Source of the DNA: Styela clava
Lineage: Eukaryota
Reading direction: 5' to 3'
Length of the DNA stretch: 64,000 nucleotides
Assembly: GCF_964204865.1 (NCBI RefSeq)
Contig: NC_135251.1
Span: forward strand, 17,732,001-17,796,000
Shown here: positions 2,173 through 40,111 of the stretch, piece by piece
Layout: the number at the start of each line of letters is the position of its first letter
How positions within the stretch are numbered: the stretch's first letter is position 1
The notes under the pieces: model-generated
Databases searched by the model: none
Told to the model about the DNA's origin: nothing
The model's input: the letters and a program-made list of their open reading frames with translations, nothing else
Made by a program: the position numbers and the translations under genes

Positions 2173-2802
2173 GACCGCAGGATGAATGTGGACTGGGGTG
2201 ACTTCTGGTGCTCTGATGTGATAATGGTCGCATTCACCCTCATTCACTTATTGCTCATTTGCTCATTCACTCATTGCCACCCGTTTTTTAACCACTATCT
2301 TATTGCATTTACATCAAAATTAATTCTACATTTCTAACTGATAACGTAAAACACTTAAAGCGCTTTGCGCAGCTTTCTGCAAAATTGCAGATTAAAAAAG
2401 CCCTCATGACTCCAACTGTCAGCCTCTAGGTTGGTCGATACAAAAATACTCTGCTGAAATATGTTAGGTAGATCTGTAGATGCATCTGACTGTGATCTTG
2501 GGGTTATGTAGATTTTTCGTAAAAGTATTAATTGTCCTATAGAATTTAATTTATATTATGAAAAAACCTCTTACGCTAACAAAATTACTCATAGCTTGCG
2601 ATTTGGTATGTGGTACCGTATATTTTTTAATCCTTAAAGTCTACTGACTGCTGGACCGATTGATACTTTTCTAACTTCATATTTTCATGGTTTTAAAGCA
2701 ATGCTATTTTTGAAAATATCCTATAGGCACGATAATACTGTAATAATATATAAATAAAAATCTTGCATGGGCATAGACTAACGTACAACTTCTCCCGCAA
2801 TC

Positions 2803-3699
2803 ATGGATAATATAGACAAACTCTCTAGTGAGCTAATAGCCAAGGATGTACCAGCATTGGAGGATCTACTTAAAATGTTATCAACAGAAGCCCAATCAAT
2901 GACAGAATTCGTGGATACTTTGTTACAAAGACTTGATGAAAATGAGTTGCCAACTGAGGGAGGAGTATCATTACTAGATGTAAAATATCATTCATTATTG
3001 AGTTATATCATAGATCTCGTATTTGTCACAAAAATGAAGATTCAGGGAGAAAATATTGCAGACTGTCATGCGAAAAATCGCTTGGTTGAAAACAGGACTG
3101 TGCTTGAAAAGTTAAATCCATTAGAACACAAAATTAAATACCAAATTGACAAACTGCTTCAGCAATCGACCCAAAATTTATTGAATGATCCACTGTCATT
3201 GAAACCTAATATTGATAATTTAGAAAGCAAAATTGATAACGATGAAAGTGGTAATTCAGATGATGAACAAGAACCTAAGAAATATGTTCCTCCACGAATT
3301 GCAGCTTCACATTATGATGTAGAAGATGGAAAAAGCGAGCAAGAAGACCGTCGATCAAGAGAGCGTGCTCTCAAGCGGTCTTCCATCATCATGGATCTCG
3401 CACAAGAAACTTCAGATGCTCCTTTTGAAATATCAGAGTATTCAGCAGGGAGAAAGCGGGTTCAAAAAGAAAGAGCAGAAAGAACAACTTATGAAGAAGC
3501 AAATCTCATCAGGATTAATCTAACAAAGAAACAAAAGAACGCTGAAAGACAGCTAATGAGACGGTCAGAGCTTGACACAATCACAAAGTTTGGCGATATT
3601 GGTGTTCTTGAGGGACGTCAGATAAAAAATAATAACAATAAAAGGAAAAGTACTGGAAAATATAATGGATCAAAAAAATGGAAAAAATTTAGAAAGTAA
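2803..3699 (+). CDS. NGDN: Neuroguidin (Sas10/Utp3/Lcp5 family; SSU processome, eIF4E-binding), single-exon CDS
   Basis: 298-aa ORF with family motifs GVSLLDVKYHSLLSYI, RLVENRTVLEKLNPLEHKIKYQIDKLL, KYVPPRI and YEEANLIRI, plus a basic C-terminal tail. Confidence 0.93.
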   Translation: MDNIDKLSSELIAKDVPALEDLLKMLSTEAQSMTEFVDTLLQRLDENELPTEGGVSLLDVKYHSLLSYIIDLVFVTKMKIQGENIADCHAKNRLVENRTVLEKLNPLEHKIKYQIDKLLQQSTQNLLNDPLSLKPNIDNLESKIDNDESGNSDDEQEPKKYVPPRIAASHYDVEDGKSEQEDRRSRERALKRSSIIMDLAQETSDAPFEISEYSAGRKRVQKERAERTTYEEANLIRINLTKKQKNAERQLMRRSELDTITKFGDIGVLEGRQIKNNNNKRKSTGKYNGSKKWKKFRK

Positions 3700-4415: not shown

Positions 4416-4654
4416 TTTTAAAGCATCATTGGAGAAATTCTTTTTGTTTAAATTGAATTCCACTTACAATATACAAATTTATTCGAATCTACTTTAGATT
4501 CAATTCCTGTCTTGTGTTTTTGACTCACCACTTCAATATCGATATTTCCACAATCATGAATGTTATCAAATTATTTTTTTTTTTCGTTTAGTGGTTTTGC
4601 TATTTCACTAATTAATTTGTAATGTATGTGAGTTTTTATCTAAAGTAACACCAA

Positions 4655-5251
4655 ATGCTTGGATTACGAACAACAGCACGGGCCTTGCGGTCATGGTGTA
4701 ACAGGACTTTAACGAATTCAAGTGCAATGAAATCAGATTCAAAAACAATGTACTTTAGCAAAAAACTATCTTTTTCGAATATTAATAAATCCTGCCGTTC
4801 TCAATCTAACTTAAACTTTTGTGGAACAAATGAAAGAGATTATTCATCAACTGCAACTCAAGAACATGAAGGAGGAAGAGAAGAATCATCTCCAGAAACT
4901 GTTCAAATCACATATATAGACCGTGAAGGTGAAACCCATGTCATTGATGGTAAAGTTGGTGACAATGTCATGTATTTAGCCCAGAGGCATGATTTGGAGG
5001 TTGAAGGGGCATGTGAGGCATCGCTGGCATGTTGCACATGCCATGTTTATGTCAAGGATAAGTATTATGATATGTTGGAAGAACCAACAGAGGAAGAAGA
5101 GGACATGTTAGACCTTGCACCATTTCTTCAGGAAAATTCTAGACTTTCATGCCAAATAATACTTTCTAAAGAAATAAATGGAATTGAAGTTCAATTGCCA
5201 TCAGCCACACGGAATTTTTATGTTGATGGTCATAAACCAAAGCCTCATTGA
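4655..5251 (+). CDS. FDX2: Mitochondrial [2Fe-2S] ferredoxin-2 (adrenodoxin-like), single-exon CDS
   Basis: Arg/Ser/Thr-rich N-terminal presequence; cluster ligands EGACEASLACCTCHV and SRLSCQ; FDX2-specific C-terminus TRNFYVDGHKPKPH. Confidence 0.95.
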   Translation: MLGLRTTARALRSWCNRTLTNSSAMKSDSKTMYFSKKLSFSNINKSCRSQSNLNFCGTNERDYSSTATQEHEGGREESSPETVQITYIDREGETHVIDGKVGDNVMYLAQRHDLEVEGACEASLACCTCHVYVKDKYYDMLEEPTEEEEDMLDLAPFLQENSRLSCQIILSKEINGIEVQLPSATRNFYVDGHKPKPH

Positions 5252-21639: not shown

Positions 21640-21775
21640 AGGAGGGGTCTCGTGAACCACCCTACGGCGGCTAGGAGTCCAGCAATCTTCTCGCACATGA
21701 TCATCCCTGCATGGGATTCGAACCCGCGCGGTGGTGAGCGTATTCCTAACGCTTAGCACGATGCGCCACACCGCC
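21640..21775 (-). mobile_element. tRNA-derived SINE copy
   Basis: Minus strand ggcggtgtggcgcatcgtgctaagcg...gggttcgaatccc (A and B boxes). Confidence 0.72.
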
Positions 21776-21782
21776 GATCCGC

Positions 21783-22855: not shown

Positions 22856-25732
22856 TTACATATTTGCCAGAAACATCCTTTCTGCCAAGTCATCATAATT
22901 TGTCGTCTTAAATTGAATCTTTATGGTCTTCCATTTGCTTCCCATTATTGGATCATTGCTAGGATTGATGTCATCAACAAATTTGAAAGCTTCCGGTCGA
23001 AGTTGAGGGATAAGAATTCTCTTTACCCGTGCAAAGATACCCCATTTAGTATCACAGTTTTTGCAAAATAATCCATGTTTTCTTTCAGTTCCCCCGTCTT
23101 CAACTGGTCGCTCTATATATTTTGTTTTAAAATCTTCTGTAATGCAAGTATGATTTGTTCCATTAACAACTTCTATATTATCACTCATGCAAGCGAATAT
23201 GCTGCATTTTTTGCAGCGTACTTTGAACCGAGAGGAATTATTCATCTTGTTTGGGTTGGCTGTTGATAATTTTTGCTTGAGACGAAAATCACATACTGTC
23301 AAATTCTGATGTTTTTGTAATTCATCTAGATATTTTCTCTCATTTGTTCTGAACATATTTTGAATGACTTCAGTTGTTTTTTCCATCAGGAGAAATTTTG
23401 ATATATTTACTTTGTCTTTAGCCATAACAGATTGAGATGAAAATTGAACCATGCGCCCTTGTGGTTTTCTTGCCCTCCCCTTGACTTGAGTGCTACTTAT
23501 TTCATTTTTGACATAGTCATAGCAAATGACCAGATTACAATTGACAATATCCATACCCTCGCTCGCAACATCTGGAGTACACACAAGAATTTTGATGTTG
23601 CCATTTCTGAACTCCTCGAGAATTTTTTCCTGTTTGCTGTGAGTTAATCCAGGAGCGGCACCATCTCTACTCTTTCCGACTCCAGTGAAATATTCTGCAC
23701 GGATATTTAGTTTTTTCAATGCTTCTGTTTCATTTAACCAGTCTTTGATTGGTTCAGCATATTGACGCCTTAAAACATTCAACATTGCTCTAGAATCAAG
23801 GTCATTCACAAATGTTTCGAGAATCTCCTTCTCCATCTTGTTTAGATTTTGGTTGGCACAATGAGGATCATTGTAATATGCTTTGAGTTTTTCAATACTT
23901 TTCAAAGCCAGCTGTTGTAGATTTTTTTCAACACTTGTAAGATTTATGTCATGTGATTGACTCAACTTGGCTTCCAAATACTTCAGAGCATCAACAGCGC
24001 GACATTTGAAATGAAGATCAAGTGCCTCATTGAATAATTGTATCTGGGATACACATGCTTGAACATTTCTACAAAAATTAACATCACTGTCTTCCCTGAG
24101 ATATTGGATTGCTTTTGCAGCAAAATCCTTGCACCACTGAATATACTGTTGTGACCCTTTCGCAATAGGTTGTGGTCTGGTTACTCCTTTAATCTTATGG
24201 ATATCCATGTTGTGAAGAATTCCAACCATTTCATCTATTGTTTCACATAGACATAATGTAAATGGGTCATTGATCGTGTTATCATCCAGAACAACACTAT
24301 CTTCTTCAACTTTTGGTGTATATTTATTCAACTCATCTCTGTGTGTCAGAGGAACAGTCACAATTCCACCAGTTGCATCGAGATTTGCGCAAAGCATTAG
24401 CATATGCTCAATAGCATCAAAATCTGTTTTACCTTTCCCAACACCAAGAGTAGCTGTTAATCCCACAATTTGAGGAAGACCATTATGTTTATCAACTTTG
24501 ATATTGAGGTATTGCACCATGATACTGTTGTATGGACTATCTTTTATAGTATGATGACATTCATCAAATACAATCATATTGAACACTTTCAAAGAATTCA
24601 CAGAACCAGTTGTGATAGCATTCAGAAGTATTTGAGCAGTCATAACAACGACATTCGCAGTTCGTAAGGAATCTTCCAATGTAGCTTTGCTGTCTCCAAC
24701 AAGATAATCAATAGACCATCCACTTGCACAAAAATAAGTCTTAATGTTATCACATTGCTGCTTTGCTAGGGAAACTCTTGGAACAATGAATGCTATCTTC
24801 GGATTTTGAGACTTTAGCGTTGAATTGAACCTGGTGTAAATAATGTGGGATGCAACTCTAGTCTTTCCACTACCGGTTGGTGCACAAATAATAACATTCT
24901 TTCCTTCAATTGCATCTTGTGATAGATCTTTTTGATATTCTCTCAATTGTCGTCCTGGCACTTCCACTGTTGTAGACTGACTTTCAGGAATGCCTACTGG
25001 AAACTGTGCAGCCAGCCTTGGAATATTAATTTGACGTGTATTTTGTATCGGGTTTGCAGCGTTTTCCTTGAAACTGGCTTCATGAACCGAACCAACATCA
25101 CATTGTGTGTCACATGTGGCATATTGCACTGTCTCTTTGAATGATAAAGATTCTAGCGATTCAATGAGTTCAGTGTCATAATTGAGATGTCTACAAACAT
25201 CTGTCAATTCGTTCCAACATTTTATCGGCTTTCGAATAAGAATTGAAAGAAGAAATCTGACAGCCTCTCGGTTTCCATCTTCTCTGGCACGACATTCTAT
25301 AAGTTCAAATTCATCTTTTGTGATTCTTTCTCCCATTTTAACTGCAACCTCCTTTGCATTAATTGTTGATTTTATAAGTGGAGAAATAATTGTGAGATAT
25401 TTTCTGATGAACTCTCTATTTTCATTCTCAATAACAGCTCTTTCCACCTCTTCAGCTTCAATTTCTCCACTTACAAGCGCAGCTAACCAGCCATGGCCAC
25501 ATCTACGCATTGCACCAGTGAACTCTTCAATTTGTATATCACTATTTGCACATTCATTAATTATAATCTCAACTGCATCATGAGTCTTTTTACGATTCTT
25601 CATAACTTTGGTATGTTTCTCTGTACCAATTATGAATACATCAGGAAGACTCTCCATCATTTCCAAAGGATCCAAATGATCTTTGAGAACCGTTTTCCAG
25701 TGTTTGAGTAATGCCTTTTCCGCTTCTTTCAT
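22856..25732 (-). CDS. DDX58: RLR-A: full-length RIG-I-like receptor (2 CARD-like domains, DExD/H helicase, pincer, Zn-binding CTD); intronless CDS
   Basis: 958 aa. Q-motif LREYQ, Walker A APTGSGKT, motif II DECHH, motif III GLTAT, motif V VASEGMDI, motif VI QVKGRAR, CTD CKKC...CKNC...KWG, and a helical ~195-aa N-terminus. RIG-I vs MDA5 orthology is not resolved, so the symbol is a family-level call. Confidence 0.9.
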   Translation of the reverse strand: MKEAEKALLKHWKTVLKDHLDPLEMMESLPDVFIIGTEKHTKVMKNRKKTHDAVEIIINECANSDIQIEEFTGAMRRCGHGWLAALVSGEIEAEEVERAVIENENREFIRKYLTIISPLIKSTINAKEVAVKMGERITKDEFELIECRAREDGNREAVRFLLSILIRKPIKCWNELTDVCRHLNYDTELIESLESLSFKETVQYATCDTQCDVGSVHEASFKENAANPIQNTRQINIPRLAAQFPVGIPESQSTTVEVPGRQLREYQKDLSQDAIEGKNVIICAPTGSGKTRVASHIIYTRFNSTLKSQNPKIAFIVPRVSLAKQQCDNIKTYFCASGWSIDYLVGDSKATLEDSLRTANVVVMTAQILLNAITTGSVNSLKVFNMIVFDECHHTIKDSPYNSIMVQYLNIKVDKHNGLPQIVGLTATLGVGKGKTDFDAIEHMLMLCANLDATGGIVTVPLTHRDELNKYTPKVEEDSVVLDDNTINDPFTLCLCETIDEMVGILHNMDIHKIKGVTRPQPIAKGSQQYIQWCKDFAAKAIQYLREDSDVNFCRNVQACVSQIQLFNEALDLHFKCRAVDALKYLEAKLSQSHDINLTSVEKNLQQLALKSIEKLKAYYNDPHCANQNLNKMEKEILETFVNDLDSRAMLNVLRRQYAEPIKDWLNETEALKKLNIRAEYFTGVGKSRDGAAPGLTHSKQEKILEEFRNGNIKILVCTPDVASEGMDIVNCNLVICYDYVKNEISSTQVKGRARKPQGRMVQFSSQSVMAKDKVNISKFLLMEKTTEVIQNMFRTNERKYLDELQKHQNLTVCDFRLKQKLSTANPNKMNNSSRFKVRCKKCSIFACMSDNIEVVNGTNHTCITEDFKTKYIERPVEDGGTERKHGLFCKNCDTKWGIFARVKRILIPQLRPEAFKFVDDINPSNDPIMGSKWKTIKIQFKTTNYDDLAERMFLANM

Positions 25733-25958
25733 GATTGTAAAAAGTGTGTTTTACTCCATCAATAATTCAACAATATTGAGAAAACTTGGAACAATCTGAA
25801 AATCAAAACATCAACTCATCATTCAAGTGTTTGAGTAATGTCTTTTCAGTTTCTTCCATGATTGCAAAAACTGTGTTTTACTCTGTGTTTTTATCAATAA
25901 AATAATTCAACCATATTGAGAAAACTTGAAATAACCTGAAAACCATAATATCAACTCA
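25695..25958 (-). repeat. Tandem duplication (~130 bp) of the RLR-A splice acceptor, 5' UTR and first 11 codons
   Basis: 25695-25818 aligns with 25822-25958; the second copy reads MEETEKTLLKHLNDELMF* (25859-25803) vs the real start MKEAEKALLKHW. Confidence 0.85.
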
Positions 25959-27702
25959 AAATCGAGTTGAGGGACATTTAAGAAAAACAACATGGCTTGT
26001 AAATTCAGCAATAAATAAGTGTTCCGAACAAAATAAAAGTTTTGCTCTGTGCACTCAATACTGGTGTATATTCTTGTCTATGAGACTGGAAGAAAACCAG
26101 CAACTACAATCTAGAAAGTGAGCATGGAAGAAGGAATTAAACTGCTGATATTCAAAGTTATTTATGGGTACAAATTCCCTGTTGAAAATTAATATATATT
26201 AGTATTTGATAAAAATTGATCATAGGCCCTGTATTGCCGAATTTGCGGACTACTTTTCTTACATATATAATTACTTACCGGTACTTATGATTTTTCAATA
26301 AACACCACTGTTAGTAAACATGTAGAGATTGAGGAGTTTTGAATATTTTTTTGACCAAATATCTAATAAGAATGTTTTAATTTCAATATCTCTGATTATG
26401 TTTAGTATCACACCATCTCTTTTAACTTTACTTAAATTTGGAACAACTTTAGATATGGTAGTATACTTTCTGAATAAACTATAATGAAGTAAAAGTGAGT
26501 GAGGTTAATGATAAAAAGTAACATTTATTGATGAATACATCAAATGCCTCATCTAGGGGGTAAGGCAAATTTATGATGCATTGATGTTTAATTGATTTAT
26601 AGTGATTATTATTTTTCTTAAATAAACCTAAAAAATTTATTAACATGCCCTTTATAAGCCAAGTTGAATGAGGTTGTAACCAAATAATGCTTTGTGTCTA
26701 CAAACGAAACATTACGATTCCATGATTCGTGAAATTTTACAAGATAAAAAATATAAGACTCACTAGAAAAGGCAGTAAATGTAAGAAAAATAGAAATGAC
26801 CCTTAACAGAAAATATGAAAACCAAAAATAGTAGAATTTTTACAAACTTACGAAGAATACTCATTGCCAGTTGTATTGGTGCAGTTTTTTTGACTAGACT
26901 TGGAGCATCTTTATCCTGTTGTATTTGAAAAAGTAATGATATCTAGATAGCAGAACATCTGAAATATGAATAACACAACATTATTTACCACATATGGTAA
27001 GCAATAAAAGCTAAAACAAATCAATTGCGAGCAGACTCAGTGGAGATGGTGCCCACTGTTCAGTATAATTTTGAATTGACAAAATAAAGTATATTCATCT
27101 AAAATTCATCTCAATCAGCATACATCTCATTTTCAATTTGTAGAATATTATCAGCTTACATCTAATTTATAAATATTAGTTAACAATAATAAATGCACAC
27201 AATTTTTCAGTATTCGAAAGAAGATAATTTAAAGATATACAAGAGAAATCAGCATGCAACCGAATAATCAAATTCGTACGAATTTGCAAATAAAACTAGT
27301 AATAAATATTATCAAGTTTTCTTTATTTCAGCAAAAGAAGTTTCAATATGAAAGAAGGGGAAAATATTGCAGAGCATGTTTAATGAATTTGAAGAAATAT
27401 AAAATTTATTTATAAACGGTGATATTTTTTAGGATTTTCCAAATAATTTCTCATACACTTGAAGGTCAACAATTAGAAGAGTTGATTATTAGCTTAGAAA
27501 TATGATAATATAACTACAATGCAATAAATGCAAACATAAGCTACAGTGAATTATTCGATCATGAACGACAACATTTCAATGTAAATATTCGTTTTTAGAA
27601 TTTAAAAATGCTTAATGAAGTTTTCAAAGCATTAGAAAATCACAAATGAATTTAAATAAAAGATGGTTTTTAACCAGACAAATTTTACAATCTGATGAAC
27701 AA

Positions 27703-29655
27703 TTAAACAGAATAAATTTGTTTCAATTCAGTATACGAAATTTCTTGAAACGATATCTTAGGAACTATCTTCTTCCATTGATTTCCCTTTATTGGATTAT
27801 CTGGAGGATGTTCATTATTAACAAAATGCAGTGCTCCAGAATTTAGAAGTGGAATCGTTATCTCAACATGCTTTGTGAAATTTCCCCATTTTTTATCACA
27901 ATTTTTACAAAAATAGTCAAATTTCTTCTCAGTTCCACCATCCTTCATTGGACGTCTGATGTACTGGGTGCCAAAATGTTTTCTTATGCAAGTATAAATA
28001 TTACCGCTGAGAACTCTTATTTCATTACCTTTGCAAACCAACACTGGACAATCACTGCAGTACACTTCAAAACCCTGACTTAAAACTGCATCTTTTGACA
28101 CAGAAGAAACTTGCTTCAATGACTTTTCAACTTTTGAAGTCATTGCCATGGCGGATTCAAGAATTGGCTTATTTAGGTCAGATTTGTCAAGTTTTTCTTG
28201 CATTTCCTCTATCGCTGTCAAGTAATCCTTTTTGTTATTTTTAGCCATAAATTGAATTTTTTTAATGACTTCACTTTCGGGATCAAATTCATCATTTTGT
28301 GATAGCGTTATAATTCCACTTGTAGCCCCAAGGTTTGCACAAAGAGTTAGTACATCTTTTTCACTTTTATTGGCACCGGGGCTACTTGCAAATCCAATAA
28401 CTTGAGGGACATTTCTGGCATGCTGGTCCTTTAACTTATGGTAATATGACATGATGACATTATATAGATGTTTTTTTCTTGCATGCTGACAATCCGCGAA
28501 TACAATCAAATCAAATTTCTCCAAGGAATCCAGTGTTCCATTTTCCAGACTATCAGTAAGTAATTTTGGTGTTACAATAATGATATTTGAAACATTAACT
28601 GCATCCATAAAATTATTGGTTTTCCCACCTCCGAATACTTTCGCAATGGACCAATTGTATGAAGATAGTAGAATAGACTCAATCTTGGCACAGTATTCAT
28701 GGGCCAGTTCAACTTCTGGAACAATTACCACAATTTTTGATTTCGCGGGAGAGGGAAATCTTCTGGAAATGATAAAAGACATGATGCGGGGTATTTCAAC
28801 TTCTTTTGGTGCATACATTATCACATTCTTACCAATAGAGGCATCATATGCCAAAGTTATTTGTTGATTTTCAAGTGGAATATCTGTTGCTTCACTTTCA
28901 TTCGAAGCCCCATTCGTAGTTTGATGATGTGTAACCAAGCTTGTGTAACCCATTACTTTTGACTGAACATCTATGGTATCAGTTTCTCTATAAGAAACAG
29001 ATTCTTCAGCTACTATGTCACTACTTGGATTACAGAATGCTTTACTCGAGACATCAAGAAACACTCCATTTAACAATTCAATTAGTTCTCCATTGTAATT
29101 TGAATCTATCAAAATTTTTCTGAAACATGTCCACCATCCTGGTGGTTGTCTTACTAAAATAGAAAGTAGTTTTCTGACACCATGTTGATTTCCTTCTTGA
29201 TCAACTCTACTCTCTATCTCTTCAAATTCTTCAGTTCTTATTATACCATGATCTCTTAGACGCTGTCCAACTTCTTTTGCATTGATTATGTCTCTTAGGT
29301 GAGGAGATATGAGAGTAAGAAATTTCCTCATTCGTATCGCATTTTCATATCTGAAAACCACATCCTCAACATCTGAGTCTTCTACACATCCATTCATAAA
29401 TTCTGCCAACACAGAATGTTTAGACTCAAAAATTGCAGCAGTAAACTCTTCAAATGTCATGTCACTGGCTATTACTTCTTCTATTATGAGTTGTACAGCA
29501 ACATGCTTGTTCTTTCGATTAGATTGAATTTGTTCATATGCCCGAGAACCAATTTGAAATAACTGTGGTAATGCATCTATTATATCTAAAGGATCGAGGA
29601 ATTCTTTCAAAACTTGTTTCCAGCTTTCCAGCACTAGAATATGATCTTGTTTCAT
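27703..29655 (-). CDS. RLR-B: truncated RIG-I-like receptor (2 CARD-like, degenerate Hel1, CTD; no Hel2i/Hel2), 650 aa, intronless
   Basis: First ATG at 29655 (MKQDHILVLESWKQ) aligns with the paralogue starts, and an AG acceptor lies at 29791-29792. Walker A is replaced by APKEVEIP, motif II by ADCQH, motif III by GFASS. After LCANLGATSGIITL the chain jumps to the pincer end and an intact CSDC...CKNC...KWG CTD. Confidence 0.85.
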   Translation of the reverse strand: MKQDHILVLESWKQVLKEFLDPLDIIDALPQLFQIGSRAYEQIQSNRKNKHVAVQLIIEEVIASDMTFEEFTAAIFESKHSVLAEFMNGCVEDSDVEDVVFRYENAIRMRKFLTLISPHLRDIINAKEVGQRLRDHGIIRTEEFEEIESRVDQEGNQHGVRKLLSILVRQPPGWWTCFRKILIDSNYNGELIELLNGVFLDVSSKAFCNPSSDIVAEESVSYRETDTIDVQSKVMGYTSLVTHHQTTNGASNESEATDIPLENQQITLAYDASIGKNVIMYAPKEVEIPRIMSFIISRRFPSPAKSKIVVIVPEVELAHEYCAKIESILLSSYNWSIAKVFGGGKTNNFMDAVNVSNIIIVTPKLLTDSLENGTLDSLEKFDLIVFADCQHARKKHLYNVIMSYYHKLKDQHARNVPQVIGFASSPGANKSEKDVLTLCANLGATSGIITLSQNDEFDPESEVIKKIQFMAKNNKKDYLTAIEEMQEKLDKSDLNKPILESAMAMTSKVEKSLKQVSSVSKDAVLSQGFEVYCSDCPVLVCKGNEIRVLSGNIYTCIRKHFGTQYIRRPMKDGGTEKKFDYFCKNCDKKWGNFTKHVEITIPLLNSGALHFVNNEHPPDNPIKGNQWKKIVPKISFQEISYTELKQIYSV

Positions 29656-30069
29656 GTTGCCGAGTGATGCACTAATTGGTAAACTGTTTATTTGCAAAAA
29701 CACAACATCTTCAGTTCGAGGTATTCCGCAGTTTGAAGTATAGGCAATCTTTCGAATGAATCTTCCACCTAAATCTGAATCGAACACTTTCTAAAAAAAA
29801 CAAGTTTTCATCAATTTTATATTTCTGTCATAATAAATATCTTGGTTTGAAATCACCAAATTGAATGAAATACATGAATGAAATTTTGCACTAGCATAAT
29901 ATATCTGAAAGTAAATAGATCTTGGGACCACCTGCATTTTCCAAATTAAGAAGTAACACAGTGGTTTTATAGAGCTATTTTTCCATAATAAAACCAGTTC
30001 CTTATTTCTAAGATTCCTTTCAGCTTGACATTCACATTTTTGTCACCCTGAAATACCAATATCTACAGT

Positions 30070-30148
30070 AGTTCACTTTAAAGTTTCTTTATCAAGTTCA
30101 CTTTTCGTTTTATATTGCTTCACGAATACGTCTTCGCTCAGTTTCATT
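30070..30148 (-). promoter_or_regulatory. Cluster of IRF-element-like motifs upstream of RLR-B
   Basis: Minus strand has aaaacgaaaagtgaact, aaagtgaact, aaagaaact and aatgaaactga within 80 bp, about 300 bp upstream of the RLR-B acceptor. Confidence 0.35.
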
Positions 30149-32112
30149 AGATAAATATAAAGCTATACACACTTGTGCATCCCATTCATGCTTATAATAT
30201 TTTAGGTTTTAATTTAAAATCTGAAAGAAAATATACACCAATCACAAACATATAACTACAAAAATTACCATACATATTTTGAATCCAAATTCATGGATAC
30301 TTGAGTCTTGATAGTATACTGTGAGATATTTGAATATAACAAGTACCAGCCAGAGTACATGTTAAAGCAATTAATCCAGGAAAGAGCATCACACATGTAT
30401 AAAAGATATAGAGGTTGAAAAATACAGCAGATTAGAAAAAATATGAAAGACATTAGTCAAATTTGAACCCCTGTTGAATGTATTAATAATGTGTATAGTG
30501 TTTAAATGTATGTTTTGAAAAAAAACATATGTGTACATGAATATGAACATTTTGATTGATAAACCACAAAAATGGATTTAAACCATCCTAGATATAAATG
30601 GGGCTTCTGTAGCTTAATACAGTGAAAGAGTTTTTGTACGGTTATTCTATTTACATATTATAATGTTATCAAGTGTGTCCCTAATTCCACCTTAAAAGCA
30701 TTGAATTACTTACATGAAATTACATATATATTTACTTACACTATAAAACTTAGGACTCAATAATACCTGACAATGATAAAATAGAAAACAATTTTCTGGG
30801 CTATGTATGTACTCTTTCATAAACCATTTTTTGTCAAATGTGGTACATATAAAAAACTCTTAGCCATAATCACACAAAATAAAATATAGTTGATAGCTGG
30901 CACTTTTTAATCAGCAGAATGGAGAAGAAATCATGTCCTGTATCAATGGTATCAGATAAAGCCTAACTAGTGGAGCTAACTTGGCATACTGCATTATTAA
31001 TCTTTCTATTTGCATCTCGGAATTATAAGATGAAATTGAATTTTGTTTTAGGAATGTTACCACACACCCTCAAACCCCCCGAGTGAATATGAAAACGCAC
31101 AATGACACAGAAATAAAACAATAACCAAACATGTTCAATACTGTTCAAGTATATTTCTGACTGGAACAAAAATTACTAATTTGCATATGATAAAGAATAC
31201 AACAACAATCAATAAAACTGAAGAATTTAGGCTTAATTTATTATTAATATAGTTTATTAGGAGAGGTTCCATATTTCAAGTCTTGCATTTATGGATAGAA
31301 GATATTTCAATAAAAAATACTGCATTTACAATGATTGGGTACACAAATGCCTATTTATTTTATCGGGAATATTAAATAGTTACACATAGAAAAATGTCAA
31401 CATCAACATTGAATGTATATAAAAAGCTTAACACTAAATTTTTTTAAAAACAAATTATACAAAAAAAGCTCAATAGTGTTCCTTTGACAGCAGGTTTTAC
31501 AAGACTATTGAATGAGTATGATGCTACCATGAGATAATGTTGAAATATCTCTTCAAGGTAAAATCCACATTAATACGCAATTTTTTATTAAAAAAAATAA
31601 GAACAAACAATAATATTAGGGTAATGGGGAGAAGGACATAGTAGAAACAATTTCACTAAAAGACTTACGATAATAGCCAGATTGAATTAGGAAGAATTTA
31701 TTTATATAAAAATAATAATATGTAAATCATGATTACAAAAATTATAAAATGCACAAAATTATGTGTTGTTTCATGAAAATATCTTTATTTCTAATTAGTG
31801 TGTAACAACTTGGTTGTATAAACAAATTATTTGCTTTATCCTTTAAAAGCAACATAATTTTTACGAAATTCTGATTGAACATATAAAAATAGTAGTTAAG
31901 TGATCCCAAGTAAATATTTATTGCCAAAAAGATTTGGAGCACAGCCATTTCACAATGGAAACGAAAACAGTGGCTAATTGTAATCTGCATAATAACTACG
32001 GTATATCATCAACTCAGGAGTATGAAAACAAGTCAATCCTATGGAATCTACATATCCTATATGACATCGATTCTGAGAGTAAAACAATTATAATTAGGTA
32101 GACAACAAAATT

Positions 32113-34962
32113 TCAAGGACTCATCACTTTCGTCTCGCCTCTAGTATCCCTGGATTCTGTTAACGCTATTCGACCATCACACTGAAGCAGCTCACTTTGC
32201 TTGTCTGTGAGAATTTGTATGTAACGATTTTCATTTTGTTGACGCAGGCGTTCAATAGTCTCAGCTGCTCGCTCCATCACTAATCTTTTATCAACCTTTG
32301 CTTTATGGTCAATTGGTACTGTTTTTGGCATGACGCTAACTATACAAGGTGATTTTGCCGAGGCGTTAATCTTTTGCTTTGAAGATTTACCTGGTGCATT
32401 ACAGTTGTAATAGATAATCAAGTCACATGCTACAGAAATATTTGGAACAATATCTTTCATGCAAATCAAGGCTTTTATCCTATTATATTTGAAGTCATTC
32501 AAACAAACATTTTTCTGTCTTTGGCAGACAGTAGACGGAGGTTCTGAATCTTCAAGGAATTTTGCATTGAGTGAAAAGTTTGCCAGTCCTCGTTCTTCAT
32601 TCAACCAATTTTTCAAATATGGCATTACATCACCTTCATTGACCACAAGAAGCAGCTTAGCATTTTTATTTCTCTGTATACATGTTGATATTTGTTTTTT
32701 GATTTCAATCAAAGTATCGTTTTGGCAGCTCCCATCTTGTACATAAGATCGTAATTTTGCAATCTGTTTGTCCGAAATATCGAACAGACGTTTCACAACA
32801 ACCTTATTTGCAACATTATAATGTGGATGTTTTTTAACATTTTCTATCAAAAAATCTAGAGCATCATCAGCACGACACAGTAATGAAATTGACAATGCTT
32901 GATTGTATATTCTGAGATAGGAAGACCCGAGTTTTAAAATTGAAGATAAAGTTACGTCATTAATTTGTTTTGCTTTTTCAAACAGAGAATTGCACCACTG
33001 AATGTATTCAACACTGCCTTTAGACAGAGAACCAGATTTTGGAACTCCATATTTCATTATTGAAGGAATGGTTAGCAAATTGAGCATCTCATCAATTGTC
33101 TCACATATACACAAATTGAATGGATCAGTGATATGCTGTTTTTCTATAAAACTATCCTGTTTTTCCAGCTGTGATTTGGAGCGCCTAGATGTCAGTTTGG
33201 GAGTGGCACGTCCGGTAGTAATTCCACCAACAGCATTTAGAAGAGCGCAAAGAGCCCAAGTATACTTTTCTGCTGTTTCTTGTTTCTGAATGTTGCCATA
33301 TCCCAAGTTTGCACAAAGACCGAGGACTTGAGGAAGATGCATAGAATTGGTACGTTGCTTTGCTTTCAAATATTCTAGCATTATATGTTTTAATGGTCCA
33401 GTTTTGTAAACATTCTGACATTCCTCAATAATTATCATGTCAAATTGAGTAATATCATAAGTATCAGATGCTTCAACTAAGGCAGTCAAAAGGACCTGTG
33501 GTGTGATCATAATAACCTGAGATTTTTCCAACAAATAATTCAGTTTATCTGTTCTTCCATCATGAAAAGATACAGCCCACTCTGTTGATGCAAAATATCT
33601 TTCAATAAGGTAATGATCTTTTTTTATTTTTGGAACAATAAAAGCAACTTTTAGACCATTTGAATCTAGTATTGATGGAAATCTTGATTGTATAATATGA
33701 ACTGCCATTTTGGTGCTGTCGGCGACTTCAGATCCATAAATAATGACATTTTGTCCATTGATTGGTTTTGATGACAAACCTATTTGTTCTGGCTGAAGAG
33801 CATCTTTGCCAGTTACCTCTTTTTGATTTCTCATTAAAGAAACATTTATGCCTGCTTCTTTTGGAATGATGCTATTTGCAGGTGAATTTTTCACAGAACT
33901 ACTACTAACAGATCGATTTCTTTGCTTTCTCAGTAACGAAGGATTGAAGCCTGCTTCTTTTGGAATGATGCTATTTGCAGGTGAATTGACAGGACTGGCA
34001 TTTACAGGTTGATTTCTTTGCCTTCTTAATGATGAAAAATTAAAGCCTGCTTTTTTCGGAATAATGTCATTTGTTGGTGAAGACACAAGGGTGTTATTTA
34101 CACGTTGATTTCTACCAGAGAGACCAAAACTTTTTTGAAAAGTTTGATTTCGTGGGTAAGTTGAACTAACTCGCCAGCATTGTGCTTCCCGCATTCTAGC
34201 AGGTGCAATGGCAAAATTTGAAACATTCTTTCCATGAAGCTCATCCATTTGTATTAGAGAAGAAAAAAAATTATCATCTTCATCGCTTGCTTCTTCCTTT
34301 AGAAGAGCAGCTTTTGTCTCCATTGACATATCCTCAGGCTCAATAGAACATTTGAAATCTTTCAGTTCATCAGGCAAATCATGAAAAATTTGTTTAAGCT
34401 CAGTGCTGTAGTTTTTCTTTTCTAAAATTTGCTTGAAGTTTTTTAGCCATTTAGTATTACTTCTTACAAGTATTTGTAACAACATTTTTACACCTTCAAT
34501 ATTCCCACGATTCTTTGATGCTGCATCAATGCGTTCATTTTGTTCTTCAGATATGAACTCTCCTAATTTCAATTCCATGGATATTTCAGATGCATTTATA
34601 CCATTAGTGATATTTTCCATGAAAACTGTAAGAAACTTGCTCACATACTGATGATATTCATAATTATTCAGTGCTTGTTCTTTCTTTGTTTCATTTCCAA
34701 TAATCAGTGCATGTAGCCATTCATGCTGATTTTTGATTGCCTTGAGAAATTGGTTATAAGCCTCACCTGGCATTTTTTCCAGATGATTAATCATGACACT
34801 AACAGCTTCATGTGGCATATCTTGCTTTGCCATAACATCTGTTCGCGCTGCCGAATTGAGATCAAATAAATCTGGAATTTCTGCCATTACTTGTGTTGCA
34901 TTGAGATATAATTTAAGATACTCTCTCCATTTTTCAATAGTTTTCTTTTGAACATCATTCAT
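32113..34962 (-). CDS. RLR-C: RIG-I-like pseudo-helicase (2 CARD-like, repeat linker, degenerate Hel1/Hel2i/Hel2, pincer; no CTD), 949 aa, intronless
   Basis: Colinear with RLR-A (DPFNLCICETIDEM, KGSVEYIQWC, LCRADDALDFL, CDLIIYY). Walker A is YGSEVADST, motif II EECQN, motif III GLCAN; motifs V and VI are lost. It ends after the pincer with no CxxC pairs. AG acceptor near 35006. Confidence 0.87.
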   Translation of the reverse strand: MNDVQKKTIEKWREYLKLYLNATQVMAEIPDLFDLNSAARTDVMAKQDMPHEAVSVMINHLEKMPGEAYNQFLKAIKNQHEWLHALIIGNETKKEQALNNYEYHQYVSKFLTVFMENITNGINASEISMELKLGEFISEEQNERIDAASKNRGNIEGVKMLLQILVRSNTKWLKNFKQILEKKNYSTELKQIFHDLPDELKDFKCSIEPEDMSMETKAALLKEEASDEDDNFFSSLIQMDELHGKNVSNFAIAPARMREAQCWRVSSTYPRNQTFQKSFGLSGRNQRVNNTLVSSPTNDIIPKKAGFNFSSLRRQRNQPVNASPVNSPANSIIPKEAGFNPSLLRKQRNRSVSSSSVKNSPANSIIPKEAGINVSLMRNQKEVTGKDALQPEQIGLSSKPINGQNVIIYGSEVADSTKMAVHIIQSRFPSILDSNGLKVAFIVPKIKKDHYLIERYFASTEWAVSFHDGRTDKLNYLLEKSQVIMITPQVLLTALVEASDTYDITQFDMIIIEECQNVYKTGPLKHIMLEYLKAKQRTNSMHLPQVLGLCANLGYGNIQKQETAEKYTWALCALLNAVGGITTGRATPKLTSRRSKSQLEKQDSFIEKQHITDPFNLCICETIDEMLNLLTIPSIMKYGVPKSGSLSKGSVEYIQWCNSLFEKAKQINDVTLSSILKLGSSYLRIYNQALSISLLCRADDALDFLIENVKKHPHYNVANKVVVKRLFDISDKQIAKLRSYVQDGSCQNDTLIEIKKQISTCIQRNKNAKLLLVVNEGDVMPYLKNWLNEERGLANFSLNAKFLEDSEPPSTVCQRQKNVCLNDFKYNRIKALICMKDIVPNISVACDLIIYYNCNAPGKSSKQKINASAKSPCIVSVMPKTVPIDHKAKVDKRLVMERAAETIERLRQQNENRYIQILTDKQSELLQCDGRIALTESRDTRGETKVMSP
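33821..34110 (-). repeat. Coding tandem repeat in RLR-C (96-99 nt, 32-33 aa, 3 copies)
   Basis: Unit RNQxVxxSxVNSPANSIIPKEAGFNxSxLRxQ; DNA core gcctgcttcttttggaatgatgctatttgcaggtgaatt at about 33850 and 33949, with a variant at 34045. Confidence 0.9.
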
Positions 34963-37129
34963 GATGTATAATTCAATACGTTTCTACTATAAAAACAAGA
35001 AAACCCTGTGAAAATAGGTAAATTGAAGTTTAAACTTATTGGAATGACATAAATTTAACTCTGATAGCTTTAATAATTATTGAATAAAAAGTTAGATAGT
35101 TGCACATCCACGCAGGCAAAATCTGAGCACAAGAAACAAGATAAAAGTGAACCAAAGCCTGACTGATGCTCATTTAGGTAATATATATTTGTGATAAAAA
35201 CTATATTACTATCGGCTTTCTGACACTCTTGATTTCTGTGAAATCTGGCAAAGTCTATAGACAATCTGTCAAGACTAAAATAGCTTGCAACCCTAATATT
35301 TTCTATCGTTATAAGCAAGGAATGTTTTGACAAAGACTATAATGTTTTCACAAAGACTTCATTTAGAGAAAGAAAAAAATTCATGAAGAGTTCATACTTG
35401 TCGCGACGTATACTGAACAAATGAAAGCAAAGTGCTTACAAAGCAATTGTATTACTACAACAACACCAAACTAGCTGATTCAAAAATGTAATTCTTACAG
35501 ATACTTGTTTTCGAGGAAAGAAAAATTAAGTTCAGAATAATTATTTCATACTGTTGCGCATACTGAATAAATTAAAAAGTAAAATTCTTACAAAGCAATT
35601 GTGTTAACCAAGGCAGTCAATTGTTTTACGAAAAAAGGAAATGCATCTAGAAAATTAGACAGAAAGTGAATGGACAGTGCAGAAACCAAACAAATATTCT
35701 CGGCATTAAACGTTTACGTTATTCTCACAAAATAAACCATCAAGAAAATCTAAATAAATTGTGCTTACATAAATAGTTTCTGCATATGTCCACATGCCAC
35801 AACACTAAACTACCAATATTGCAGTTAAATTTGAATAAGTTTGCCTTTCTGAAGAAAAATTTCACACAAATTTAATATGTATGATATAGTAATATTTTAA
35901 ATTGGAGATTCATTTCATATCAGTATCAATATAGTGGTATAGTTACCAGGCACACGAATTCTGTGCCTCCGGAAACCAACATTAACTGTGTTTACATAAG
36001 GCAAATATTGATTTCAATTTTTAAAATAATTGAATACTGCTCCACTTATATTGTAGGTGTATTGTACAAACAAATTTCCGTACAAAAAATACGGTGCTTG
36101 TTTCTACTCATCTTAATGAAACTTACAGGTTTTTGTGATAAATATGATTCCCTTTTATTACTTAGTAATGTCTTCTTATGAATTGTAGATCAAGTTTCAA
36201 TACTCAAGTGAATCTTGAGTACTGAAACTATTTTTATGGTCAATGTTTATTGAAATAATTTAATCAAAATCCAACCCAAAGACTCCATAACTATCTGGCC
36301 ACCTTGAAATTTTTTATTCTTTCATTACCTCCTCCATTTCCATAATTGATTATGCCAATATCTTGAACTTGATTACTCCCTAAATTCAATATTCACAGGT
36401 TAATATTTCAAGGATGTGACTTTTTCAATTAGTAGGTGGAGATCAGCAGCGCTCTCAACCACTGGACCGAGGATATTAACATTTGTTATTGTTTTGCCAC
36501 ATTTCGCACGGCTCAAAAATCAAAATTACAATTAAATGATTTTTATGTCGCAAATCTCAAAATATGAATATGATTTATATCAGACAGGCCATTCACAGCT
36601 AATAATAGTAATACCATTTCAATATGATGTATAAGCATGCTTAGATGAGCAGCACAAGCCCTAAATTCTGGCATGGATTTAGGAAAGATAAACTCATTGT
36701 TCTTCTTCGACCAATCACAGTTCCATACCACTTTGATGTACATTCAGTATGCATTAGGAATGACGTTGACAAACTGCAACAACTGGCAAATCTGGCGAGC
36801 GTATTCCTAACGCTTGGCCCGTTGAGCCACACCGCCGCGTTTTTAAGCTGGGAAAATGCAATATTCTGACATTAATGCACCAGAAAAAGCATACGGTAAG
36901 CAAATGAAGCAGCACAGACACAGAAAAGGATTCTCATGTTTGTGTACTTGAGAATACTTTATCCCTTCCCCCAGGCCCCGTCAGTAAAAAGAGCACAGAA
37001 AAACTTTTAGAAACGAACGAACTAACTCAGTATATCGTAATTTTCCGTCTCTCAGTAGCTGTTGAAATGCTGTAACGTATAACTCCAAAATCGTTGTGCA
37101 ATAAATAATGCTCTATATTACCAAGACTT

Positions 37130-37927: not shown

Positions 37928-39163
37928 ATTACAGTTTATATATTCCATCCTAATCCTATCCCGTGCAGTATGCAATTTTGCAATTGTAACCCTACCGTAA
38001 CAAGCTTATACACAAAACCTTCTGACCTCATTTGTATTTCTACTGTGTTATCTTTCATTCCTCACCTATGATTGCATTTTGCCATTCTCGTCTTTACCAT
38101 ATTATTCTGATCTGAATTTATACAGCTGTAGCCATTGCTGCATTGAGGTTTTTTCTGCTGCCATAAAATATTAGCCCAAGCGCAGTTTCGCAGAAGCGGG
38201 AATAAAAGATTTGATATACTAATATATAGGGTTTCAAATTGATTTTAAAGTTTCAAATTTATTTTAAACTTTGAAATGAACAAATTTGACTTGAAAGTTC
38301 GAGTTGATATTGGAAATTCAATTTGGAAATAAGTTACAAGATAAAAAGAATAGATTTTAATATTTGCCGATTTGAATGACATATTAGAAAATTAAAAATG
38401 GGAATAAATAATTAGATGGTTAAGAGCTGGAGTCACTAGAATTTCTGGTAGCTCCAGCTCCATGTAATATGGTAAGCTTGGCTCCAGCTCCATTAGTTCC
38501 GGCTCCGCAGCCCTTTTTTCAATTACTGAATGAAAAGAAGTATTATGTATTCATGGATATCAGAAAAATTGCACGCTTCGATGAAGAGCTACCATATATT
38601 TCATTTAGATGCAGGAAATAATGTAATATAATATGACAATTGGCTCAGTGCCAACTGATTACTTTAAGATGAATGGACATATAATGATAACGAATGTCAA
38701 AACCAAAAATGGAAATAAAGGAAATTTTTTTTATCTGATCAAGCGATCAGATATCAATATTATCCAAGCACAGCAAATTACAGAATTACACCATTATCTA
38801 GGACCCAGTACTGCAGTATGTATTGTTTAATCTACATTCTACACTTCATGACTTGATACAGTAATATTAGTTATGCCTTGTTTACGGGAGTTAAATATAT
38901 ATGCCTATTCTGTGTGTCAAGAAACAATATTTTTTATTCACATGGGATGTATTTTTTCGGATTTCGAAATGAAATTCGTTGTGATTTTCATGTTATTATC
39001 TTTAGTTCCTTGGTTTCTGCAACCTGATGTAGCAAGCAGGTTTTGGTATAATATGTGACACAAACTTGTACCTTGTTTTCAAATATCAATTGCATTGTGT
39101 ATAAAGGAGATACAAGGCCTAATTTTCATTTACATTAACAGTCTAAGCCAGTAGTATTATAAT

Positions 39164-40111
39164 ATGAGCAGCGATTCAGATCTTGCTACTCAAGCGACCT
39201 GTAATGATGCTTCAACGTGTAAAAGATACGCTGTTCAGAAAGGATATTGGAATGATCCATATATATCGCATATGGTAAAAAGTGTGGGATCTCGTAAACC
39301 TCCAGAGATAAACCGAGGATATTATGCGAGAGTAGAATCAGTGTGGATACTGATTAAAAAATTTATTCATGCTACTGAAAGAAAGTGCCAAATTGTTAGT
39401 TTAGGTGCCGGCTTGGACACTACGTTCTGGAGACTTTGTGGAGAAGAATTAAGTCCTATTCGATATATTGAACTCGACTTTCCTAATGTCACAATGCGTA
39501 AAGTTCAAACTATCAAATCGAAAACTTTATTAACACAAGCCTTTAACACATCAGAAAACGATACAAAGATTGAAACATCAAGCATTATTTCAAATAAATA
39601 TTCCTTACTTCCTGCGGATTTGCGTGACATAGAACTTGTTGAAAAACAGCTAAAACTAGCTCAAATTGATTTTACTATACCTACTCTCTTTCTCACTGAG
39701 TGTGTTCTTGTGTACATGTCATCCAAAAATTCGAATGCTATCTTGAAATGGGTGACAACCAATTTTGAAAACTGTATGTTTGTCAATTACGAACAGGTCA
39801 ATATGAACGATCGTTTTGGACATGTTATGATTGAAAACTTGAAATCTCGTGACTGTGACATCCCTGGTGTTGATGTATGTGAAAGCCTTGAATCTCAGCG
39901 AAAACGATTTCAAGAAAATGGCTGGGATCAAGTAAATTGTATTACTATGTGGTCTGTGTATTCTATTTTACCACAATCTGATGTTCAGAGAATGGAACGT
40001 CTTGAGTTCATGGATGAACAAGAACTTCTTGAACAGTTATTGACTCATTATTGCTTATGTTGGGCAACAAAGGCGGGTGAGAGTTTCAACTTGAAAGAAA
40101 TTGAACTCTGA
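39164..40111 (+). CDS. LCMT1: Leucine carboxyl methyltransferase 1 (PP2A C-subunit methyltransferase), single-exon CDS
   Basis: 315 aa; QATCNDASTCKRYAVQKGYWNDPY, PPEINRGYYARV, SAM-binding QIVSLGAGLDT, TECVLVYM, YEQVNMNDRFGHVM, LEFMDEQE; acceptor AG at 39140-39141. Confidence 0.96.
   Translation: MSSDSDLATQATCNDASTCKRYAVQKGYWNDPYISHMVKSVGSRKPPEINRGYYARVESVWILIKKFIHATERKCQIVSLGAGLDTTFWRLCGEELSPIRYIELDFPNVTMRKVQTIKSKTLLTQAFNTSENDTKIETSSIISNKYSLLPADLRDIELVEKQLKLAQIDFTIPTLFLTECVLVYMSSKNSNAILKWVTTNFENCMFVNYEQVNMNDRFGHVMIENLKSRDCDIPGVDVCESLESQRKRFQENGWDQVNCITMWSVYSILPQSDVQRMERLEFMDEQELLEQLLTHYCLCWATKAGESFNLKEIEL

Follow-up and report, generated by a model that had tools for sequence, protein, structure and literature searches.

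RLR-B, the middle one of three tandem RIG-I-like receptor (RLR) genes in Styela clava, encodes a protein with two N-terminal CARDs and a CTD that has lost Hel2i, Hel2 and most of the first pincer helix in frame. The deletion is real, and its junction is present in independent animals. We tentatively suggest, at somewhat less than an even chance, that RLR-B is a motorless accessory subunit that joins RNA-bound RLR-A and adds its CARDs to the signal.

The window, which is the whole stretch of DNA that we analyzed, is 64,000 nucleotides long. It contains three RIG-I-like open reading frames (ORFs) arranged head to tail on the minus strand in the order C, B, A, each as one coding exon, so that RLR-B lies between RLR-A and RLR-C. 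The features are as follows.

32113..34962, minus strand: RLR-C, 949 aa, with two CARDs, a dead Hel1, Hel2i, a degenerate Hel2 and a pincer, without a CTD
30163..30290, minus strand: C/B boundary, operon-like, from contig ends, with an AG acceptor at 30222-30221
29791..29931, minus strand: GT-AG intron in the B 5' UTR; joint in run X6, one contig, depth 2
27703..29655, minus strand: RLR-B coding sequence, 650 aa, a single stop-free coding exon, spanned by single contigs
29374..29655, minus strand: B CARD1 (residues 1 to 94), by Pfam and fold comparison
29068..29349, minus strand: B CARD2 (residues 103 to 196), by Pfam and fold comparison
28876..29061, minus strand: B CARD-helicase linker (residues 199 to 260), disordered and 15% identical to A, by AlphaFold model and alignment
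28282..28875, minus strand: B Hel1, ATP motifs dead, by alignment and structure superposition
28261..28281, minus strand: B in-frame deletion junction (residues ~459 to 465), by alignment to A and bridging contigs
28183..28278, minus strand: B pincer stub (residues 460 to 491), the final turns of helix 1 plus helix 2, by alignment and model
28118..28162, minus strand: B pincer-CTD linker segment of 45 nt (residues 498 to 513), missing in frame in run X13
27718..28083, minus strand: B CTD (residues 525 to 646), by Pfam and residue alignment
25796..26851, minus strand: GT-AG intron from the B 3' UTR to an acceptor just upstream of A; joint in run X13, one contig
22856..25732, minus strand: RLR-A, 958 aa, full architecture with intact ATP motifs

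Of the 958 residues of RLR-A, 18 are different in the S. clava protein XP_039258797.1. A second NCBI S. clava model, XP_077976094.1 (2613 aa; P0154; window 22856-34962), fuses C, B and A and matches the three sequences of the window letter for letter. We rejected a single giant C-B-A protein: the joins of this model trim 2 residues from the C-terminal end of RLR-C and 10 from that of RLR-B, the sole B-to-A joint seen begins in the B 3' UTR, and no listed joint fits the model. Three separate ORFs are wrongly merged in it, and B and C are thereby hidden from protein databases. Two tandem duplications lie in the neighboring genes. Three tandem copies of 96 to 99 nt (window 33791-34081) extend the CARD-helicase linker of RLR-C, and the start region of RLR-A and its acceptor are duplicated at a spacing of 127 to 140 nt just upstream of A (window 25695-25958).

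The cluster may be an operon. Contigs of C end at 30222-30364 and contigs of B start at 30163-30164, leaving 58 bases between the closest C end and B start as judged from contigs, which cannot show true ends. The criterion for ascidian operons is less than 100 bp between same-strand transcripts, and Ciona operons consist of abutting genes, are rich in single-exon genes and are frequently merged by annotation pipelines (PMC2760879; here and below, cited papers are represented by the portions of their text that were retrieved). These traits match the fused 2613-aa model. One contig, in X13, continues from B into A, although a contig over two genes is not proof of one transcript. No spliced leader was seen on B in the contigs examined; a loose B 5' end at 30164 resembles adjacent genomic sequence and therefore looks allelic rather than like a leader. 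B contigs were found in all six RNA-like runs examined, where the RNA nature of the runs is a guess resting only on the two GT-AG joints and on coverage that tracks genes. This breadth does not suggest a silencing specific to B.

Thirteen public runs contain the stretch, of which we examined six, plus one run of raw DNA reads. Single contigs from X3, X4, X6, X8 and X13 (five of the seven runs; studies P2, P3 and P4) cross the junction without a gap. The junction was unbridged among the contig pieces listed for X9, and the raw reads of X14 cover it at a depth of about 1. An assembly artifact is excluded by the junction contigs from independent runs; this was the outcome against which the initial annotation had asked for a check, and it did not arise. 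A skipped or nearby exon is excluded as well, since the flanks of B hold no remnant of Hel2i or Hel2 able to be spliced in.

Alignment of B to the 958 residues of A places the exit from Hel1 at residues ~459 to 465 (window ~28281-28261) and the re-entry at A residues ~784 to 788. Depending on the register, 312 to 323 aa are gone, in agreement with an earlier estimate of about 320 aa in frame. The earlier description of the loss was correct for Hel2i but incomplete, because Hel2 is missing too, along with most of pincer helix 1. By mapping A onto human RIG-I, B re-enters within the final turns of pincer helix 1 and continues into helix 2, and not at the second pincer helix as first thought. Aligned without gaps, B 461-485 matches A from residue 784 with a shuffle p of 0.038, which is weak by itself. 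Nor is Hel1 joined almost directly to the CTD: about 65 residues, the pincer stub and a linker, lie between them.

Pfam finds CARD_2 in two stretches of B (E = 1.5e-16), DEAD, and RIG-I_C-RD (PF11648, E = 4e-14). It gives no Helicase_C or RIG-I_C (Hel2i) match in B, and both are present in RLR-A; Pfam and the alignment to A thus agree on the absence of Hel2i. The best PDB sequence match of B is RIG-I (E = 8e-25). We modeled B with AlphaFold from an alignment of 8 sequences (mean pLDDT, 72). The N terminus has a tandem-CARD fold, as had been supposed, and Foldseek ranks the tandem CARDs of RIG-I and MDA5 highest (E = 4e-6); its comparison with VIA gave a Z score of 13.9 over 183 aligned residues at an rmsd of 5.3. 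The model has helices at residues 460 to 473 and 475 to 491. Superposition of residues 257 to 497 on residues 240 to 794 of mouse RIG-I (3TBK) aligned 234 residues with an rmsd of 2.6 Å and a Z score of 28.9, which predicts the pincer stub in its native place on Hel1. Hel1 and the stub are therefore predicted by the model to form one compact unit.

The ATP motifs of B are altered as first described, with APKEVEIP at Walker A and ADCQH at motif II. In human RIG-I numbering, Lys270 is Ile288 in B, Asp372 is Ala387, Glu373 is Asp388 and His375 is Gln390; the Q-motif Gln265 is retained, and motif VI falls within the deletion. With substitutions at the motif I lysine and at both acids of motif II, and with motif VI gone, ATP hydrolysis by RLR-B is very unlikely, judging by these residues. 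The CTD (pI 9.0) retains all four zinc ligands (Cys533, Cys536, Cys583 and Cys586). The RIG-I residues Lys861, Lys888 and Lys907 are Asp580, Asn605 and Gln626 in B, and Lys858 is retained. RLR-A still has basic residues at positions 888 and 907. The capping-loop positions Phe853 and Phe856 are non-aromatic in both A and B. At the level of sequence, Tyr642 in the C-terminal tail of B aligns to the tyrosine of the mouse MDA5 tail.

RLR-B belongs with the RLRs by its tandem N-terminal CARDs, its zinc CTD and its descent from an RLR gene. It departs from them in the Hel1-Hel2i-Hel2 core, in ATPase motifs I, II and VI and in the complete two-helix pincer. It resembles RIG-I (DDX58) in having tandem CARDs, Hel1, the pincer elbow and a zinc CTD in the same order; however, it lacks Hel2i, Hel2, the ATP motifs, the Phe539 latch, the end-capping aromatics and most of the triphosphate-pocket lysine set. 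With MDA5 (IFIH1) it shares, in its sequence, the non-aromatic capping loop and the tail tyrosine, as well as most filament-contact parts and probably unlatched CARDs. Unlike MDA5, it would be unable to close a ring around double-stranded RNA (dsRNA) or to proofread by ATP hydrolysis. LGP2 (DHX58) is an accessory RLR that tunes a signaling RLR (PMC4885022), a role that is only proposed for B. In architecture the two are mirror images, because LGP2 has a full helicase without CARDs, whereas B has CARDs and lacks half of the helicase.

The exhaustive protein search returned 459 proteins at E <= 0.001, of which the best 150 were listed; 155 proteins were scanned for modules. Among those best 150 of 459, the nearest relatives of B are A and then the Logan proteins P0005 and P0006, followed by P0008 and a CTD fragment, P0011. 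All modules are present in P0005, but its Hel1 and ATP motifs are degenerate. P0006 lacks Hel1 entirely and is roughly the reciprocal of B. P0008 is C-like: it comes from another organism and has the ATPase-dead architecture of RLR-C without a CTD, so this CTD-less form is conserved across species. We found no credible CTD remnant after RLR-C. The tree unites A, B, C, P0005 and P0008 in a clade (100/97) that is sister to the Ciona RLR (98/95), and from the tree we infer that P0005, P0006, P0008 and P0011 are ascidian. Grouping the ATPase-dead proteins as one clade is not rejected (p-AU = 0.276), which is compatible with a single loss of the ATPase. The sisterhood of B and A on the CARDs has a support of only 80/81. 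No B ortholog with the same deletion in another ascidian appears among the best 150 of the 459 relatives. Word-indexed protein searches returned nothing for B or among shorter proteins, and since they also missed known relatives, absence is not implied; a word-indexed search with alignment gave one distant FANCM-like match. The Atlas comparison matched only generic RLR clusters, with scores below 0.9.

The module pattern of B recurs in only one of the 155 proteins scanned, P0024 (XP_035673073.1) of Branchiostoma floridae, which has CARD-Hel1-pincer-CTD without Hel2i and Hel2. However, this protein has one CARD, its Hel1 ATP motifs are intact, and its sequence picks up again at motif VI. The pattern may be convergent, or it may reflect a splice form or an incompletely predicted gene. 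Tandem duplication and domain change are common among invertebrate RLRs (PMC8998645), and a sea-star protein has a DED and a CTD with no helicase (PMC8662601). The non-canonical forms described in the retrieved portions of these sources include N-terminal grafts, reversed forms and loss of the whole helicase, and none of them keeps Hel1 and the pincer while losing Hel2i and Hel2. The retrieved portion of PMC9505182 has nothing on these genes, and our literature search, which covered the main texts of open-access papers, returned no paper that describes these genes or a form made of Hel1, pincer and CTD. Non-canonical invertebrate RLRs are thus already known, and the Hel1-pincer-CTD variant of RLR-B is new.

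In RIG-I, CARD2 is held silent by Hel2i, and the initial annotation had reasoned that the CARDs of B must be either constitutively exposed, so that B needs tight transcriptional control, or restrained in trans by the Hel2i of C or A. Its anatomical part holds, in that no CARD2-Hel2i contact in cis is possible in B. The dichotomy itself presupposes a RIG-I type of latch. The position of human Phe539 is deleted in B and is occupied by Gln558 in A and by Lys677 in C; of the 131 aligned proteins with a residue at this site, only 12 have phenylalanine. In apo MDA5, the CARD2-Hel2i contact is absent by HDX (PMC4333383). A non-aromatic instead of an aromatic capping loop is the mark that divides stem-binding MDA5 from the end-binders (PMC4885022). 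The missing Phe539 in A and C, the unlatched apo MDA5 and the MDA5-like capping loop suggest that exposed CARDs may be normal in this clade and gated by oligomerization. Silencing of CARDs by Hel2i is thus not established for this clade, and to judge from these residues, the loss of Hel2i in B need not bring a new danger. Two observations weigh against this reading: the CARDs of RIG-I and of MDA5, when free and overexpressed, signal constitutively, and full-length MDA5 is perhaps weakly autorepressed by its own helicase (both PMC4517655).

If RLR-B is an accessory subunit, the absence of Hel2i and Hel2 would keep it from encircling dsRNA, hydrolyzing ATP or nucleating alone, and its exposed CARDs would stay dispersed and quiet. 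It would dock on the pincer face of RLR-A through Hel1, pincer helix 2, the CTD and the MDA5-like tail. Because the start of pincer helix 1 is missing, B would be poor at extending a chain and would act as a cap. Its CARDs would then co-oligomerize with those of A, feed a MAVS-like adaptor and lower the signaling threshold. In one of the two main interfaces of the MDA5 filament, a loop of Hel1 contacts pincer helix 1, and in the other the CTD and tail contact pincer helix 2; Hel2i-Hel2 contributes 4 to 13% of the interface area (PMC6310684). B has retained mostly these filament-contact parts, which favors an accessory subunit; we infer by position that the pincer helix 1 contacts carry over onto B. 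However, the MDA5 interface residues are not conserved in RIG-I (PMC6310684), and RLR-A scores slightly higher against RIG-I (290 bits) than against MDA5 (268 bits), so A may not form filaments. The signaling of free CARDs alone on overexpression also counts against the proposal, as does a pN/pS of B above that of A. The positive sign of the effect of B is the weakest step.

Candidate partners are encoded elsewhere in the genome. A MAVS-like gene (P0156; L023:133-1812 on G000:C6) is a single ORF of 559 aa with a CARD, a low-complexity middle and a C-terminal hydrophobic tail; its N-terminal CARD_2 match scores 27.4 against a Pfam cutoff of 28.2. Complex prediction with four B tandem CARDs and the MAVS-like CARD scored 0.00 and is evidence neither way. 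There is also a second, multi-exon RLR family on G000:C3, at 4.56-4.60 Mb and 5.77-5.90 Mb. These two loci have Hel1, Hel2i, Hel2, pincer and CTD exons, CARD exons were seen in one of them, and there are several further Hel2 and CTD matches. RLR-A is therefore not the sole candidate for a full-length partner of B.

The anatomy of an accessory subunit fits an inhibitor equally well. RLR-B could be a brake or decoy that docks on the assembly of A, the adaptor or a viral antagonist, and whose CARDs do not propagate, so that it dampens A or absorbs inhibitors. We regard this as possible but unlikely. The capping geometry would end chains, and B lacks the latch while being found in all the RNA-like runs. 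In Caenorhabditis elegans, drh-2 is closely linked to drh-1 and negatively regulates antiviral RNA interference (RNAi) (PMC2629121). DRH-2 is thus an RLR-family paralog that regulates its neighbor, as we propose for B; it acts in RNAi and its negative effect was measured, whereas the effect of B is a proposal from sequence. Runs X13 and X9 carry a divergent B haplotype whose replacements cluster in the CTD (residues 580 to 620) and in late Hel1 (residues 410 to 437), as would be expected of a surface under pathogen pressure, and balancing selection on this haplotype is possible. The two clusters lie at window 27798-27916 and 28327-28426. Against a brake, the CARDs of B are as conserved as its other domains and fold as tandem CARDs, and the vertebrate regulator LGP2 works without CARDs (PMC4885022).

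It is improbable, we think, that B and C form a paired receptor, in which C would restrain the CARDs of B in trans or complete its ring until RNA or a viral protein releases them; the restraint in trans proposed in the initial annotation falls under this reading. The module losses of the two are reciprocal, their genes are adjacent with nearly abutting contigs, and the C-like P0008 occurs in another organism. RIG-I trimmed to the architecture of C (residues 1 to 797) is locked off (PMC4517655). However, the Phe539 position is lysine in C and glutamine in A, the Hel1 domains of both B and C would compete for a single site in a shared ring, and the Hel2 of C is degenerate (24% identity to A). 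The C lineage also occurs elsewhere with no B-type partner found among the best 150 of the 459 relatives.

We see only a slight probability that B is a stand-alone minimal sensor, with the CTD and Hel1 binding a ligand and clustering the CARDs without a motor. B, P0005 and P0006 have CARDs, pincer end and CTD in common and differ in the helicase parts, and the zinc ligands and the basic pI of the B CTD would suit such a sensor. However, the equivalents of Lys861, Lys888 and Lys907 are lost in B and there are no capping aromatics. A double mutant of Lys888 and Lys907 makes the RIG-I CTD deficient in RNA binding, and RIG-I activation requires the helicase RNA sites, including those of Hel2i (both PMC4517655). 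The loss of Lys888 and Lys907 in particular argues against stand-alone sensing of ends.

The retained domains of B look to be under purifying selection. A and B are 42% identical over the CARDs, 40% over Hel1 and 44% over the CTD. Over these three regions, dN is 0.53 and dS is 1.48 (NG86), where dS is near saturation and the divergence takes in time before the deletion. Among the best 40 of 107 variant rows for B, 34 are coding, with 21 replacement and 13 silent changes (pN/pS = 0.43; p = 0.019 versus neutrality). None of the 34 is a stop, and the two indels within the coding sequence, of 3 and 45 nt, are in frame. The best 40 of 309 rows for A include 35 coding variants with a pN/pS of 0.17; the difference between B and A has a Fisher p of 0.093, and the ratios are rough since rows were selected by support. 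A decaying duplicate, transcribed only through the co-transcribed cluster, is just as improbable as a stand-alone sensor: catalytic and RNA-contact residues are gone, the terminal branch of B is longer than that of A (1.12 versus 0.43) and its pN/pS is higher, but the 650-codon frame is open and free of stops and frameshifts among the listed variants, pN/pS is significantly below 1, the junction is structurally clean, and Hel1 is far more conserved than the linker.

An accessory RLR-B is part of a broader and more doubtful possibility, that styelid-type ascidians have split the RLR into a co-transcribed kit. The kit would comprise an intact ATPase sensor and motorless subunits (B, C and, elsewhere, Hel1-less proteins), all with tandem CARDs and hetero-oligomeric or paired on RNA. 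Such a kit would be to animal RLRs what sensor-helper pairs are to NLRs. RLR-B is a natural, selected experiment that parts RLR signaling from the helicase ring and the ATPase, in the sister group of vertebrates. The coding sequences of A, B, C and the MAVS-like adaptor each occupy one exon, which opens two questions to direct tests: is the CARD2-Hel2i latch ancestral or an invention of vertebrate RIG-I, and are Hel1, pincer and CTD alone enough for RLR co-assembly?

Other uninterrupted ORFs in the window are putatively neuroguidin-like (2782-3699), mitochondrial ferredoxin-like (4649-5251) and leucine carboxyl methyltransferase-like (39155-40111), and are presumably housekeeping genes. A high-copy repeat of ~47 bp flanks the RLR cluster on both sides (36793-36839 and 21732-21776) and is very deep across several runs.
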